Positions 1 to 6,211 of a stretch of 22,496 bases of DNA are shown here, piece after piece (within the stretch, counting starts at the first letter, position 1; every line of letters begins with the position of its first letter). The notes below the pieces were generated by a model. It was not told the origin of the DNA and ran no database searches. It saw nothing but the letters and a program-made list of their open reading frames with translations. The stretch comes from a virus. Position numbers and translations under genes: made by a program. The stretch lies in the UHGV virus genome UHGV-1752853. One strand, written 5' to 3'.

Positions 1-83
1 ATCGCGGATTCAGGTGCTGGTACTGAATTCACCGGGAGGCACCCGGCACCATGCATCTGGTGAAATAAATGTGCATACGTAAT

Positions 84-108
84 GCCCCTCTTCGGAGGGG
101 CTTTTTTT
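84..108 (+). terminator. Rho-independent terminator-like hairpin (GCCCCTC-TTCG-GAGGGGC followed by T7)
   Basis: Perfect 7-bp GC-rich stem with 4-nt loop at 84-100 followed by TTTTTTT at 102-108; seen directly in sequence. Confidence 0.55.
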
Positions 109-192
109 CGAAAAAAGCACGCAATGGGCGTGCATTAGCATGAGATATTGAGGCTTTAAATTTTTTCGTGCGGGTTTTAACCCGGTTTCATG

Positions 193-283: not shown

Positions 284-2215
284 ATGACGTTTAAACATTA
301 TGATGTGGTCAGGGCAGGTTCAGCATCAGGGCTTGCTGAGCAGCTGGCACAGAAGATAAAAGAAGGGTGGCAACCGTATGGCAGTCCTGTGGCTGTCACA
401 CCAAACATCCTGATGCAGGCTGTTGCTGCAGAGGGTGATGTGAGCACGCCTGTGGTTGTTCCCGGCACGGGAGCCGGCGTAGCATCGGGAGTGACATCCG
501 GGGAGCCGGATTATTACTACGTGGTGGTACTCGCCGGACAGTCGAACGGGATGGCGTATGGTGAGGGTATTCCTCTTCCGGAGACTTACGACCGTCCTGA
601 CCCGCGTATCAAGCAACTGGCCAGACGCAGTACGGTAACGCCGGGTGGTGAAGCCTGTTCTTATAATGATGTCATTCAGGCAGACCACTGCCTGCATGAT
701 GTGCAGGATATGAGCAGCTTTAACCATCCGAAAGCTGATCTGAGCAAAGGGCAGTACGGGACTGTCGGTCAGGGACTGCATATTGCCAAAAAACTGCTGC
801 CTTACATTCCGCAGAATGCCGGGATACTTCTGGTTCCCTGCTGTCGTGGTGGTTCGGCATTCACCACCGGGGCTGATGGCTCATTCAGTGAGGCCAGAGG
901 TGCTTCTGCTGACTCTGCATGCTGGGGAGCCGGTAAACCCCTGTATCAGGACCTGGTAAGCCGCACCAGAGCGGCACTGGCGAAGAACCCGAAAAATAAA
1001 CTTCTGGCTGTGGTATGGATGCAGGGAGAGACAGACCTTGCATCAGGAAGTCAGCAGCATAATGGTTTATTCACTGCCATGGTTCAGCAGTTCAGAACAG
1101 ACCTGTCTTCAGTTGCAGCGCAGTGCGTGAGTGGAAATGCTGGCACGGTGCCGTGGATTTGTGGTGACACGACATATTACTGGAAGGCAACGTACGGTAC
1201 GCAGTATGACGCCTTATACAGCGCGTATAAAACGCTGTCAGCACAGCATATCTTCTTTGTTCCGTTCCTGACGGATGAGAATGGACAGAACACGCCAACG
1301 AATGCTCCGACGGAAGACCAGGATATTGTGGCTGTCGGGTATTACGGTGCGGCATCCAGAACAAACGGGAATTTCGTTGCGGCACAGCGCGAAAGTCATT
1401 TCAGCGCATGGGCACGCAGGGGCATCATTTCTGACCGTCTGGCCTCCGCTATTCTGCTCCATGCAGGGCGCACGGCTGAACTGATGGGCGGGCAGGTCGT
1501 GACACCACCGGATGAGAAGCCGTCACCTGACACCCCGTCAGCGGACGGGAAATCAATGACAACGCTGCTTTCTTACCGGGCATCGGAGTCAGGCGGAGCA
1601 CTGAAGTCACAGGGATGGGCGGCTGCCGGTGGGAGTGCCATTATTGTTGATGATGCCGGTGCCAGTGAAGGTAAGGCACTGAAACTGACCAAACAGACCG
1701 GAAGGTCATGGGCTGTACAGCATGATGCCGGTAATGGTGCCGACCTGCTGGAAAAAGGTGGCCTTGTCAGCTGTCGTTTTAAACTTGATGGCGCGCTTAC
1801 GGCTAATCAGTACGCACTGGCGCTGTACTGGCCGGTTTCTTCGCTGCCTCAGGGCGTCACACTGGAAGGTAATGCCGGTCATAACCTGCTGGCATCGTTT
1901 TACGTTCAGAGCGATGCCACAGACCTTAACGTGATGTACCACAAGGGTAATCCGGACCAGAACACGAAGCTGGGTTCATTCGGTGCATTTAATAACGAGT
2001 GGCATACGCTGGCATTCCGTTTTGCCGGTAACAACAGTATTGAGGTAACGCCGGTGATTGATGGTCAGGACGGAACACCGTTCATGCTGTCGCAGTCTCC
2101 GGTAGGGACACTGGCGGCAGACAAGTTACGCCTGACCGATATCACCAGTAATGCAACGTATCCGGTACTGATTGACAGCATTATGGTTGAAGTGAATAAC
2201 CTGTCAGCAGGATAA
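284..2215 (+). CDS. nanS-p: Prophage-encoded sialate 9-O-acetylesterase, NanS-p-like (N-terminal DUF1737-like domain plus SGNH-type esterase domain)
   Basis: ORF track 218-2215; start moved to ATG 284, which has a GGAGGA RBS at 275-280. N-terminus MTFKHYDVVRAG...KEGWQPYG and the esterase motif VVLAGQSNGMAYGEG are recognised from memory of Stx/lambdoid prophage NanS-p proteins. Position just upstream of the lysis cassette fits. Confidence 0.7.
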   Translation: MTFKHYDVVRAGSASGLAEQLAQKIKEGWQPYGSPVAVTPNILMQAVAAEGDVSTPVVVPGTGAGVASGVTSGEPDYYYVVVLAGQSNGMAYGEGIPLPETYDRPDPRIKQLARRSTVTPGGEACSYNDVIQADHCLHDVQDMSSFNHPKADLSKGQYGTVGQGLHIAKKLLPYIPQNAGILLVPCCRGGSAFTTGADGSFSEARGASADSACWGAGKPLYQDLVSRTRAALAKNPKNKLLAVVWMQGETDLASGSQQHNGLFTAMVQQFRTDLSSVAAQCVSGNAGTVPWICGDTTYYWKATYGTQYDALYSAYKTLSAQHIFFVPFLTDENGQNTPTNAPTEDQDIVAVGYYGAASRTNGNFVAAQRESHFSAWARRGIISDRLASAILLHAGRTAELMGGQVVTPPDEKPSPDTPSADGKSMTTLLSYRASESGGALKSQGWAAAGGSAIIVDDAGASEGKALKLTKQTGRSWAVQHDAGNGADLLEKGGLVSCRFKLDGALTANQYALALYWPVSSLPQGVTLEGNAGHNLLASFYVQSDATDLNVMYHKGNPDQNTKLGSFGAFNNEWHTLAFRFAGNNSIEVTPVIDGQDGTPFMLSQSPVGTLAADKLRLTDITSNATYPVLIDSIMVEVNNLSAG

Positions 2216-2350
2216 AAAAATCCCGCCAGTCGTGAGCAGATATATGACTGGCGGGTAATTATTTCCGATTTACCAGAAAAGCATAATGTTATATTCACTA
2301 CAGAGAATGATAGCTTTCTCGGACGCTTTTCTACCGGTAACGGTTACCTG

Positions 2351-2960
2351 GGTCAACATGACGGATAAATAATGATGTTTTTTCCGCTGATATTTATATC
2401 TTTCTGTACGGCACGCCATTCTGAAGCAGGCGCAGTTCATGACAGTAGTACAGATATTCAGCTGGAGACAGGCATCACCCGGTCAGGTATGTATAACGCT
2501 GAGCTGGCATCTGATTGTTGATATATTGGGAGGTCATTATGCGGGTAAGGATAAAAAAATGCCGCCGGGAAGAAGGTCAGGAACCGACGGCAATAAGTCA
2601 ACTAACTTAGCTTAACATGCAGAAACATTTAAAACTGGTTAATGCTTGCAGGTCAACAGAACGGAGGAATAATGACGTTTTTTCATCTGATATTTATGTC
2701 TTTCTGTGCTCCACGCCATTCTGAAGCTGGCGTCTGATTGTTGATATGGTGGATGGTTGTTACGACGGCGTGAGGATAAAAAATGCCGCCGGGAAAAGTG
2801 TCCTGAACCGGCGGCAAAGGTCATGCGATGGATATTGCCAATAAGGCTTAATAGGCCCGGTAATTTCTAATCAGAATGAATGTAACGGTCAATAACGGAG
2901 AGGAATAATGACATTTTTACAGCTGATATTACTGTATTTCTGTACGGCGGTGTGTGCGTT
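2351..2960. repeat. Three tandem diverged copies of a short module (GGTCAAC..ACGGAGGAATA-ATG followed by an MTFF.LIF..SFC-type ORF start); copies 1 and 2 are also followed by a GC-rich hairpin
   Basis: Module starts near 2351, 2651 and 2888. Copy 1 ORF 2371-2424 (17 codons), copy 2 ORF 2672-2737 (21 codons), copy 3 is the intact 72-codon ORF 2908-3126. Hairpins TGCCGCCGG/CCGACGGCA at 2560-2592 and TGCCGCCGG/CCGGCGGCA at 2784-2816, each preceded by an A-run. Confidence 0.6.
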
Positions 2961-3126
2961 ATATCTGCTGAGTGGGGGTTATAAGGTCATTCGTAATTAT
3001 GTCCGTCGAAAAATTGATGATGCGGCGGTGGCGAAGGTGAGAGCCTCTGCTGCGCCCGTGGTATCGTCAACAAATGCGGCAGTCACCACAAACACCGCAA
3101 ATCAGATGGCTGATACCGGCGCATAA
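2908..3126 (+). CDS. Small protein with N-terminal hydrophobic segment (72 aa), function unknown; intact copy of the triplicated module
   Basis: ORF track 2908-3126; RBS GGAGAGGA at 2897-2904; predicted single N-terminal transmembrane helix (FLQLILLYFCTAVCALYLL). Confidence 0.45.
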   Translation: MTFLQLILLYFCTAVCALYLLSGGYKVIRNYVRRKIDDAAVAKVRASAAPVVSSTNAAVTTNTANQMADTGA

Positions 3127-3209
3127 GCGTACCGCATCATGCTGTACCAGATTAAGGAACATGGCCGCTCTGAGTGGCCTTTTTTATGGACCACCCGCAG
3201 GGGATGTGG

Positions 3210-3431
3210 ATGGTGAGAATGAACATATCAGTAGTGGCGTCGGGGGTTTCTTACACCACATCCTTGGTCAGTGGTGGTTACTGGCTTCTGCAGTTACTGG
3301 ATGCGGTGAGTCCGTCCCAGTGGGCGGGGATAGGTGTCCTGTCGAGTGTGCTTCTGGGAATACTGACGTACCTGACGAATCTGTACTTCAGGATTAAGGA
3401 CGACAGGCGTAAGGCTGCAGGAGGAGAGTAA
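3210..3431 (+). CDS. S: Class II pinholin, phage 21 S21-like, with dual-start motif (Met-Val-Arg-Met)
   Basis: C-terminal two thirds ([52 protein letters not shown]) closely matches my recollection of S21. Starts at 3210 and 3219 reproduce the S21 71/68 antiholin/holin arrangement. The track ORF begins at 3174 but I prefer 3210. Confidence 0.8.
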
Positions 3432-3435
3432 TTCA

Positions 3436-3864
3436 ATGACTCAAAAACATGAACGGGTTGTTAAAGGAACCCGCAATTTTGATAAAAGAGATTTTACTGT
3501 TTCGACACCGGACAAAGACTGGGAATGTAACCGGCCATCCTTTGTTGTATCCGGTGATGGCGGGAAAATAATCATCTCAGAAAATGGCAAAGTAACGCCA
3601 CCATCACGCCGGCACAGCGAAGAACTTATCAGGTTTGCCATTGATTACCTGATGAATAATGAACAACAGGGTCTGATGAAGCGCATTGGTCGCTGCATGG
3701 GGTATCTGCAGGTTGCCGCAGAGATTGAAGCGCTGGCCAGTGGTGCAGACAGGGATGCAGTTGTGAGGGAGACTGTTCTTCGTGATTTTGATAACCCGCC
3801 CTTTAAAGACGTTCCTGCTTACTGGCTCCATCCGGGGCTGACTTATCTTAAAGGGCGTATATAA
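3436..3864 (+). CDS. Hypothetical protein (142 aa), unrecognised, inserted between holin and endolysin
   Basis: ORF track; ATG sits 5 nt after the holin stop, so likely co-translated with the late operon; AT-rich relative to flanking genes; no family recognised. Confidence 0.5.
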   Translation: MTQKHERVVKGTRNFDKRDFTVSTPDKDWECNRPSFVVSGDGGKIIISENGKVTPPSRRHSEELIRFAIDYLMNNEQQGLMKRIGRCMGYLQVAAEIEALASGADRDAVVRETVLRDFDNPPFKDVPAYWLHPGLTYLKGRI

Positions 3865-3873
3865 GCTGGCGCG

Positions 3874-4188
3874 TTATCTGTCGCCAGATAATCGACTGAA
3901 GATGCGTTCTTTTTGTAATCTGGCGTAATTATTGTCCCACTTGCAGGCAAGGTAACTTAATTCTTCATTCAACCAGTTATTTATATTGGTCTTAAGACGC
4001 AGAAGCATGGGCGGTGTTAATGCTCCGGACATAATACGGAGAGTGACAGATGTGAGATGTCCATACGGCTCAGCCTGAATGGCCTTTACTGCTTCGTGTT
4101 CTTGCGGGAGGAGTGAGAGGCACTCTGATTTTACCCGTTCATTTATGGCCTGCAGGCATAAATCATAATTATGTTGATCGTTATGCAT
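3874..4188 (-). CDS. Hypothetical protein (104 aa), unrecognised, convergent with the 142-aa ORF
   Basis: ORF track; strong SD (GAGGA, 6-nt spacer) upstream of ATG on the minus strand; AT-rich codons; hairpin GCTGGCG...CGCCAG at 3866-3887 between the convergent genes. Confidence 0.5.
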   Translation of the reverse strand: MHNDQHNYDLCLQAINERVKSECLSLLPQEHEAVKAIQAEPYGHLTSVTLRIMSGALTPPMLLRLKTNINNWLNEELSYLACKWDNNYARLQKERIFSRLSGDR

Positions 4189-4326: not shown

Positions 4327-4860
4327 ATGAATACAAAAATCAGATACGGCCTGTCGGCTGCCGTTCTGGCACTGATTTCCGCAGGGGCTTCTGCGCCTGA
4401 AATCCTTGACCAGTTTCTGGATGAGAAAGAAGGCAACCACCTGACGGCATACCGTGACGGTACGGGTATCTGGACCATCTGCCGTGGCGCCACAATGGTG
4501 GACGGTAAGCCTGTCGTTCCTGGCATGAAGCTGACGAAGGAAAAATGCGACCGAGTGAACGCCATCGAACGGGATAAGGCGCTGGCGTGGGTGGAGAAAA
4601 ACATCAAAGTGCCACTGACTGAACCGCAGAAAGCGGGCATCGCGTCATTCTGTCCGTACAACATCGGGCCTTCGAAATGCTTCACCTCAACGTTTTACCG
4701 GAAACTGAACGCCGGAGACCGGAAAGGTGCATGTGCTGAAATCCGCCGATGGATATATGACGGCGGCAGGGACTGTCGGAACCGCTCAAATAACTGTTAC
4801 GGGCAGGTATCGCGGCGTGACCAGGAGAGCGCGCTGGCGTGCTGGAGTATCGACAGATAA
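4327..4860 (+). CDS. R: Endolysin, GH24 T4-lysozyme-like with N-terminal SAR/signal-like segment
   Basis: Catalytic-triad-like spacing E-x8-D-x5-T in EGNHLTAYRDGTGIWTICRGAT; weakly hydrophobic Gly/Ala/Ser-rich N-terminus (YGLSAAVLALISAGASA) typical of SAR endolysins paired with pinholins. Confidence 0.85.
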   Translation: MNTKIRYGLSAAVLALISAGASAPEILDQFLDEKEGNHLTAYRDGTGIWTICRGATMVDGKPVVPGMKLTKEKCDRVNAIERDKALAWVEKNIKVPLTEPQKAGIASFCPYNIGPSKCFTSTFYRKLNAGDRKGACAEIRRWIYDGGRDCRNRSNNCYGQVSRRDQESALACWSIDR

Positions 4861-5289: not shown

Positions 5290-5757
5290 ATGAACCGTGT
5301 TCTGTATGTGGTGCTTATTGCCCTGCTGCTTGGTTGTGGAGCGCTGTGGCTGGCAACAGACCATTACCGTGATAACGCCATGACCTACAAAGCGCAGCGC
5401 GATAACAAAGCCAGTGAACTGGAGAAAGCGAATGCAACCATTACTGATATGCAGCAGCGCCAGCGGGATGTTGCTGCACTCGATGCAAAATATACAAAGG
5501 AGTTAGCCGATGCGAGAGCTGAAAATGAAACTCTGCGCGCTGATGTTGCCGCTGGTCGCCGCAGCCTGCGGGTCAACGCCACCTGTGTGTCCACCACAGA
5601 TAAAACCACCGGCACCACCAGCATGGATAATGCAGCCCGCCCCCGACTGGCAGACACCGCTCAACGGAATTATTTCACCCTCAGAGAGCGACTGATGACG
5701 ATGCAGAAGCAACTGGAAGGGGCACAGCTCTACATCAATGAGCAATGCCTCAGATAA
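5290..5757 (+). CDS. Rz: Rz i-spanin (inner membrane spanin subunit)
   Basis: N-terminal TM followed by HYRDNAMTYKAQRD...DVAAGRR...RLADTAQRNYFTLRERL...YINEQC, recognised as lambda Rz-like. Confidence 0.85.
   Translation: MNRVLYVVLIALLLGCGALWLATDHYRDNAMTYKAQRDNKASELEKANATITDMQQRQRDVAALDAKYTKELADARAENETLRADVAAGRRSLRVNATCVSTTDKTTGTTSMDNAARPRLADTAQRNYFTLRERLMTMQKQLEGAQLYINEQCLR
5510..5695 (+). CDS. Rz1: Rz1 o-spanin (outer membrane lipoprotein), embedded in the +1 frame of Rz
   Basis: Lipobox LVAAAC followed by a proline-rich segment; the segment from PPAPPAWIMQPAPDWQTPLNGIISPSE onward resembles lambda Rz1; wholly embedded in Rz. Confidence 0.75.
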   Translation: MRELKMKLCALMLPLVAAACGSTPPVCPPQIKPPAPPAWIMQPAPDWQTPLNGIISPSESD

Positions 5758-6093
5758 AAACCGGTAAGGGATAATCCGCTTAAGATTTACCGGTGGCGAA
5801 GAGAGCCAAAGCATCAAATTACGCGATTACCTGTAGCAGTACAATATATTGTTTACGTTTTCTTATTAATTCCAGATGTATGTCTGTGCGCCGTGTCGTC
5901 GCCGTATTCCCGTATTAACAGAGACCGCAGCCCGACGGGGAGACTCTTCTGCGCGAGTGTGCGGGAATAATCAGAAACGATATACACCGGGTTTTACCGC
6001 GTGAACGGGACGCGGGTTTACCCCACATGGTCGTCCATCCGGTGCGATGGTGGAAGAAACCGGAACACTCAGTACTTGCATGGAAGGAATAAA

Positions 6094-6118
6094 AAAAGCC
6101 GCAGGTGGTATGCGGCAT
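6094..6118 (-). terminator. Minus-strand rho-independent terminator
   Basis: GCCGCA/TGCGGC 6-bp stem (6100-6118 on +) with a 7-nt loop; the A7 run at 6093-6099 becomes a U-run on the minus strand. Confidence 0.5.
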
Positions 6119-6121
6119 AAA

Positions 6122-6211
6122 ATGGCACGAATTGAAGAGTGGTTTATCTTAGCGTTTATATTTTTATCTTATATCTGTGCTGTTGTTCAATTCGTTATTT
6201 TTGTCGGCTGA
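6122..6211 (+). CDS. Candidate 29-aa hydrophobic peptide (possible type I toxin-like ORF)
   Basis: ATG 6122 to TGA 6209-6211; MARIEEWFILAFIFLSYICAVVQFVIFVG; no clear SD; start lies immediately 3' of the hairpin; speculative. Confidence 0.2.
   Translation: MARIEEWFILAFIFLSYICAVVQFVIFVG

Follow-up and report, generated by a model that had tools for sequence, protein, structure and literature searches.

Three tandem minus-strand cassettes with the features of small RNA genes at the esterase-holin junction of a lambdoid prophage

The stretch of DNA analysed here (virus genome UHGV-1752853, 22,496 nt, henceforth the window) comprises the late region of a lambdoid prophage. Between the stop codon of its esterase gene and the DUF1378 gene ahead of the holin lies a junction interval of 690 bp which, going by its likeness to loci already described in E. 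coli, is best read as a stacked, copy-number-variable version of the known PasA/PasC-type prophage small RNA (sRNA) locus. We propose that this interval holds three tandem sRNA gene cassettes on the minus strand and that the short open reading frames (ORFs) it also contains are debris; the probability of this reading, with the units as functional sRNA genes, we put at about 60%. The cassettes share one anatomy, this anatomy is conserved across cassette types that are otherwise unrelated, and the number of cassettes varies among relatives.

The 3′ part of an STnc100/PasD-like sRNA, clipped by the window edge (positions 1–113, plus strand; Rfam RF02076, 77.9 bits, E 2.3e-15), lies upstream of the called gene of a NanS-p-like sialate O-acetylesterase of 643 aa (284–2215, plus strand), in which Pfam DUF1737, SASA and DUF6645 were recognized. 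The TAA stop codon of the esterase (2213–2215) sits inside an A-run that is, on the minus strand, the T-run of the first unit. To the right of the interval is the intact DUF1378 gene (2908–3126, plus strand), whose 72-aa product has an N-terminal transmembrane helix and matches PF07125 (1.5e-26) and phrog_494 (3.4e-27); at 92.7 bits against a PF07125 gathering cutoff of 25 it belongs to the family, which as phrog_494 is a PHROG of unknown function. It is followed by the gene calls of a P21-type class II holin (pinholin; 3186–3431, plus strand; PF04971, 8.4e-28), a lysozyme (4327–4860; PF00959) and Rz (5290–5757). Two ORFs lacking a Pfam match lie between pinholin and lysozyme, one on the plus strand (3436–3864, phrog_1085) and one on the minus strand (3874–4188, phrog_1853); both PHROGs are of unknown function, and each match covers only the C-terminal part of a longer profile. 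A terminator-like hairpin on the plus strand (3163–3179, GGCCGCTCTGAGTGGCC followed by T6) is found between the DUF1378 stop and the pinholin starts, overlapping the upstream GTG/ATG starts of the holin ORF. In their structural genes, the window and a prophage of E. coli O158:H23 CFIAFB20140388 share 93% identity. The DNA of the interval itself had almost no megablast match in the phage collection or in complete E. coli genomes, more distant blastn searches with it gave partial relatives only, and Rfam at a permissive threshold returned nothing meaningful for 2150–3250.

The preliminary description of this region had reported a triplicated start module, with two decayed gene copies and an intact one. 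Alignment bears out three direct copies of a 62-nt module (2351–2412, 2651–2712 and 2887–2948), with an identity to copy 1 of 82% for copy 2 and 74% for copy 3; between the first two, the likeness extends over 82 nt at 85%. What the module is has to be restated. On the minus strand, the invariant GGTCAA at its left end reads TTGACC, the −35 box of a predicted promoter, and it is this promoter, together with a terminator, that is kept everywhere, whereas the ORF is not. Read on the minus strand, i.e. convergent with the phage late operon, every unit follows the same plan: TTGACC, 17 nt, TAGAAA (units 1 and 3) or TTTAAA (unit 2), a body of ~68–110 nt, a GC stem of 9–10 bp and T6–7. Each cassette would thus be provided with a sigma-70-type promoter and an intrinsic terminator of its own.

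Unit 1 (2214–2356, minus strand) has its −35 box at 2356–2351, the −10-like TAGAAA at 2333–2328 and a predicted start at ~2321; with a terminator stem at 2255–2246 / 2231–2222 and T7 at 2220–2214, the predicted RNA is ~108 nt long. Its fold has −30.5 kcal/mol (z −3.3), and a homologue is found on an E. coli plasmid (L010). In unit 2 (2553–2656, minus strand) the −35 box is at 2656–2651, the −10-like TTTAAA at 2633–2628, the predicted start at ~2621, the stem at 2592–2584 / 2568–2560 and T7 at 2559–2553, for a predicted RNA of ~69 nt; its homologues are the first unit of another relative (L011) and the second unit on the L010 plasmid. For unit 3 (2778–2892, minus strand) the corresponding elements are 2892–2887 (−35), 2869–2864 (−10-like TAGAAA), ~2857 (predicted start), 2816–2808 / 2792–2784 (stem) and 2783–2778 (T6), and the predicted RNA is ~80 nt. 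Among the 4–5 homologues of the unit 3 type, four of them from E. coli, the stretch between the hexamer and the predicted start is variable and conservation begins at the predicted +1, with GCCTATTAA.CCTTATTGG, and two pairs of the terminator stem show compensatory changes.

An A-run followed by a 9-bp GC stem had been noticed behind two of the module copies. These repeats are indeed present, at 2554–2593 and 2778–2817, and are 85% identical, but there are three such units and not two: a further A-run with a 10-bp stem, overlooked earlier, lies at 2214–2255 and abuts the esterase stop codon, so that a terminator is found to the left of every start module. The suggestion that the stems would work as intrinsic terminators on the minus strand holds up, each being followed there by T6–7 and having a predicted stability of −15 to −20 kcal/mol, even though the loops of units 1 and 2 (14–15 nt) are longer than typical. 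That the hairpins act instead as attenuators on the plus strand, terminating or processing the late transcript itself, is very improbable. A T-rich stretch does follow the hairpin at 2222–2255, and a terminator scan calls it on both strands, but in plus-strand order hairpins 2 and 3 come after an A-run with no T-run behind, and only on the minus strand do T-runs follow their stems. Furthermore, the unit 2 stem contains one G-U pair that is valid only in the minus-strand RNA and becomes a C-A mismatch in plus-strand RNA, and Q-modified polymerase reads through terminators.

The pattern TTGACM-N17-TWDAAA occurs three times in the 22.5 kb against 0.01 expected, a count that is not an independent test since the pattern was derived from the same copies; all three sites are on the minus strand, one per unit, and the stem and T-run come 68–108 nt after each of them. 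A generic promoter scan does not call the unit promoters, whose −10-like hexamers do not have the consensus T as their sixth base; it likewise misses the promoters of PasA and PasC.

To place the units in a wider setting, we collected esterase-to-DUF1378 junctions from IMG/VR contigs, E. coli genomes and metagenomes. All of them follow one plan, with promoter and terminator kept in every unit of every relative, while the bodies sort into five or more types that cannot be aligned with one another. The Sp15 prophage of strain Sakai provides a further body type, in which TTGACA-17-TTAAAA is followed by CCGCCAGCG…CGCTGGCGG and T8. When 16 units from other genomes were aligned, TTGAC, the T-run, parts of the stem and four positions of the −10 region (a G and three A's) proved invariant, while the bodies differ. 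A covariance model built from these 16 units (R1), none of them from the window, recovered units 3, 2 and 1 at full length on the minus strand with E-values of 1.6e-12, 6.4e-10 and 1.7e-7, those of units 2 and 3 partly reflecting plain homology because the training set holds homologues of both. The same model also found the Sakai Sp15 junction, on which it had not been trained (E 3.4e-5), and four units in the relative L084.

Other searches for relatives were less productive: a protein-based scan of genome contigs found nothing, a degenerate DNA pattern gave six matches in genome contigs, all by chance, the 39 matches to CACGCYATTMTGAAGC among viral contigs were all chance matches as well, and a hairpin pattern had no match in viral contigs. 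On plasmid unnamed2 of E. coli O158:H23 (L010, 3440–4010) there is a 440-bp relic of units 1 and 2, 74% identical, located between an IS3 pseudogene and a truncated aminotransferase gene. Elsewhere in the window, downstream of Rz, the minus strand at 6086–6190 has a further unit of promoter and terminator, reading TTGAAC, 17 nt, GATAAAAAT, then GCCGCATACCACCTGCGGC and T7 (R1 E 0.007), and an analogous unit exists in Sakai Sp9 (L042, ~5650–5750, minus strand). Nearby, ~5930–6040 on the minus strand is homologous to the region of EcOnc12, an abundant Hfq-bound peak downstream of Rz/Rz1 in Sakai Sp9 (L042, 5523–5570).

The short ORFs that gave the repeat its first interpretation look quite different once they are read in register. 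Copy 1 had been described as starting at 2371 and as frameshifted by an extra T, stopping after 17 codons. There is no ATG at that position and no extra T; the ATG is at 2372, and the ORF (2372–2521, plus strand), which shares the frame of copy 2, is 49 codons long, the figure of 17 having arisen because the copy was read one base out of register. Copy 2 (ATG 2672; 2672–2737, plus strand) does end after 21 codons, and copy 3 is, as described, the intact 72-aa ORF of the DUF1378 gene. Of this family copy 3 is a full member, while copies 1 and 2 have only its first 13–14 codons and diverge after codon 14. Past this point the 49-codon ORF continues into unrelated sequence, possibly a decayed esterase 3′ end, for which the best match is only suggestive (the esterase end of L086, 35% identity over 23 aa, E 5–10). 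Behind the 21-codon ORF comes an esterase 3′ relic (2725–2777) ending in GACGGCGTGAGGATAAAAAA; it is clear only for its last ~20 nt before hairpin 2, and there GACGGCGTGAGGATAAAAAA agrees with the genuine end of the esterase in the L011 and L085 alleles. The extra units therefore carry a DUF1378 5′ stub by the promoter and, in unit 2, also an esterase 3′ stub by the terminator.

Could the short ORFs be translated, as leader peptides of the form MTFF.LIF..SFC that tune DUF1378 and the holin, or as small membrane proteins in their own right? A strong Shine-Dalgarno sequence at copy 2 (GGAGGAATAATG) and the hydrophobic N-terminus common to the three copies would fit, and we nonetheless consider this quite improbable. 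The 49-aa ORF has no Pfam or PHROG match and, among 5.8 billion protein clusters, no homologue but itself. Copies 1 and 2 differ at six codons, and at five of these the encoded amino acid differs too. Length and end point of the ORF also differ from one relative to the next: 49 and 21 codons in the window, 18 in L011 and 27 in E. coli A8 (L087), whose DUF1378 stubs are truncated elsewhere, a stop at codon 5 in the L010 homologue of the 49-codon ORF, and no ATG at all in the extra unit of L084, which has nevertheless kept TTGACA and its terminator. On the reading proposed here, the 49- and 21-codon ORFs are recombination by-products. In E. coli A8 the truncated stub lies in a two-unit array and has been annotated as a 27-aa "hypothetical protein" (WP_122998027.1; L087, 1427–1510); given its position inside an array, it is probably not a gene.

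The preliminary description also suspected that the junction had been remodelled by repeated recombination, and this is well supported by the DUF1378 5′ relics in units 1 and 2, the esterase 3′ relic in unit 2, and the existence of relatives with one, three or four units. This three-unit sequence recurs, at 99.9–100% identity, in six independent assemblies, and the array is thus not an assembly artefact. Among close relatives there is one unit in L007, three in the window and four in L084 and L082. L007 encodes an identical DUF1378 protein behind a single unit of a different type, and its homology to the window (97.5%) restarts exactly at 2888, inside the −35 box. The flanks of L084 and L082 are 97–99% identical to the window, and their fourth unit lies between the esterase stop and unit 1, bounded by a 15-nt repeat (AAAAAAATCCCGCCA). 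Two units are found in E. coli A8 and on the cM8a plasmid. Stacked arrays arose independently, with different breakpoints. Within the window, copy 2 corresponds to copy 1 minus ~77 nt, lost between the microhomologies (short direct repeats) GAAGCAGGCG and GAGCTGGCAT.

Judging from these alignments, the conserved flanks behave as recombination anchors around variable bodies, which is why the "start module" appeared as the best-conserved part of the repeat. Cassettes would have been stacked by recombination between a left flank made of the esterase 3′ end and terminator and a right flank made of the promoter and DUF1378 5′ end; the module would then be a −35 box plus a DUF1378 5′ stub that was carried along with each cassette.

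The main competing view is that all of this is neutral, i.e. debris of recombination between prophages in which the signals are intact only through recency and nothing beyond at most unit 3 is functional. This is a possibility to be taken seriously, albeit one we rate as doubtful. It would agree with the gene stubs in units 1 and 2, with the confinement of the array to one closely related set of contigs and a few E. coli variants, and with the Hfq-CRAC list of Sakai (PMC4104026 Table S2), which has no peak at the analogous Sp15 junction (2922031–2922167), of the same architecture, and lists none at any DUF1378-type junction. Set against it, the bodies of units 1–3 have greatly diverged, yet every unit retains its promoter elements (−35 box and A-rich hexamer, 17 nt apart) and its terminator elements (stem and T-run). 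The IS-flanked plasmid relic of L010, which is unlikely to be under selection, has TTGTTC in place of one −35 box and an interruption in one T-run. The independent origin of stacked arrays with different breakpoints argues against neutrality too.

Hfq sRNAs are in fact known from this very position. PasA and PasC of EPEC E2348/69, validated by Pearl Mizrahi 2021, are encoded on the strand opposite to the esterase, in the space that separates it from the following gene (PMC8550237), at NC_011601 743499 to 743415 (minus strand, with a minor form ending at 743264) and 1290909 to 1290832 (minus strand), respectively (PMC8550237 Table S6). The Hfq-bound EcOnc52 of EHEC Sakai (1181998–1182075, minus strand; Tree 2014, PMC4104026 Table S2) overlaps the end of esterase ECs_1088. 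Zhu, Shabalina & Storz 2026 give the gene order as esterase, PasA/PasC, holin, lysozyme, with PasD/STnc100 upstream of the esterase (bioRxiv 10.64898/2026.05.13.724894). The units of the window likewise lie between a SASA/NanS-p esterase and a holin, on the opposite strand, as do PasA, PasC, EcOnc51 and EcOnc52, and the order STnc100/PasD-like sRNA, esterase, units matches the PasD2-esterase-PasA order of E2348/69 (PMC8550237 Table S6; bioRxiv 10.64898/2026.05.13.724894).

The resemblance extends to the anatomy of the genes. The known RNAs are ~65–85 nt long with a GC stem and a poly-U tail, comparable to the window units, which have their 3′ stem-loop and poly-U on the minus strand as PasA and PasC do. 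The esterase stop codon is the end point of PasC, of EcOnc52 and of the long, 236-nt form of PasA, and unit 1 abuts it in the manner of PasC and EcOnc52; the major PasA, of 85 nt, has a terminator of its own and ends there, ~150 nt away. TTGACA-17-TCAGAA is found upstream of both PasA and PasC, and TTGACA-17-TGAAAA in the EcOnc52-type unit; as a match of motifs, the window units appear to share this TTGACA-17-T.RAAA geometry, with ~6 nt from hexamer to +1. The reported 5′ end of PasC is 7 nt past the hexamer, an agreement that is suggestive and not proof, given that the 5′ end of PasA may arise by processing (Zhu et al., bioRxiv 10.64898/2026.05.13.724894).

The RNA sequences are another matter. 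The bodies of PasA and PasC and the PasA seed GCCAGCACCU are absent from the window units, BLAST gave no cross-match beyond the T-run, and the best hit in the window of a covariance model built from Pas sequences only (R2) was not significant (E 2.6). Judged by sequence, as in the blastn survey of the preprint, and by seed, the three RNAs have therefore not been filed as PasA or PasC. The layout differs as well: the window has three different cassettes in tandem, the extra ones with gene stubs, and a DUF1378 gene after the array, whereas the PasA and PasC loci have no DUF1378 gene and pas copies have been described as never in tandem, the closest pair being 22 kb apart (bioRxiv 10.64898/2026.05.13.724894). 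Prophage PP2 of E2348/69 (L012, 2363–2635) carries, in tandem behind PasA, an EcOnc52-like unit that has a TTGACA box and a terminator of its own; the 236-nt "minor" PasA form ends at this second terminator, and a two-unit array is thus already present in a reference strain.

Other phage sRNAs are more distant. The anti-sRNAs AgvB and AsxR and the "convergent sRNAs at the moron site" (Tree 2014, PMC4104026) are likewise short, independently transcribed, located downstream of pR′ and convergent with the late operon, and there too related cassettes have variable 5′ parts and conserved 3′ ends (Tree 2014, PMC4104026). They lie, however, before the esterase (after stx or the moron), measure 51–60 nt and are unrelated in sequence to the window units. 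If the window units are sRNA genes, their tandem arrangement would differ from that of bacterial sibling sRNAs. OmrA/OmrB, PrrF1/PrrF2 and the Qrr RNAs are also adjacent genes, each with its own promoter and terminator, but these siblings are close paralogues that arose by duplication, while the bodies in the window are largely unrelated and their units were apparently joined by recombination between conserved flanks.

If they behave like PasA, PasC and EcOnc52, the cassettes would each be transcribed in the lysogen into a small Hfq-type regulatory RNA of ~108, 69 or 80 nt, and these RNAs may act in trans on mRNAs of the host or the phage. When the translation-start regions of the window were searched for such trans targets, nothing rose above shuffled controls. 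The RNAs would also be perfectly antisense to late transcripts running from the esterase into DUF1378 and the holin. It is conceivable, but unlikely, that this is their main role, and that they form a cis-antisense lock akin to a type I toxin-antitoxin system, pairing with leaky late transcripts upstream of DUF1378 and the holin to silence them in the lysogen, more units making a tighter lock. By construction the RNAs are fully complementary to the late mRNA between esterase and DUF1378. Transcription is predicted to diverge from just upstream of a small membrane-protein gene, the predicted ribosome-binding region of DUF1378 overlapping the unit 3 promoter, a layout that resembles tisB/istR-1 or zorO/orzO. 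In addition, the RIL-seq partners of PasA include the esterase 3′ region (PMC8550237, supplementary file 9). Yet the lack of DUF1378 at the PasA and PasC loci means that the RNA is not tied to this gene, the predicted RNAs overlap only the upstream leader of the read-through transcript and not the ribosome-binding site or coding sequence of DUF1378, and no outstanding pairing was seen with any start region in the window.

Taken as sRNA cassettes, the three units add to a locus whose position, strand, promoter geometry and terminator were known; what appears to be new here, on the evidence of the sequences, is that several unrelated cassettes stand in tandem and in variable copy number. More tentatively, the esterase-holin junction of lambdoid prophages might be a platform through whose conserved flanks unrelated regulatory sRNA genes are swapped and stacked, with arrays of one to four units selected to widen or tune the sRNA repertoire of the lysogen or to tighten an antisense lock on the lysis genes; as a general statement this is speculative. 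Where short "hypothetical proteins" have been annotated at this junction, as with the 27-aa CDS of E. coli A8, they are probably recombination stubs and not genes. In pathogenic E. coli, prophage sRNAs (PasA-D, AgvB, AsxR and StxS) rewire the regulation of the host. If the cassettes are expressed, the sRNA types of the esterase-holin junction would far outnumber the two found by BLAST, they could be stacked in tandem, unlike those of the recent Pas survey (bioRxiv 10.64898/2026.05.13.724894), and the conserved flanks would explain their exchange between phages.
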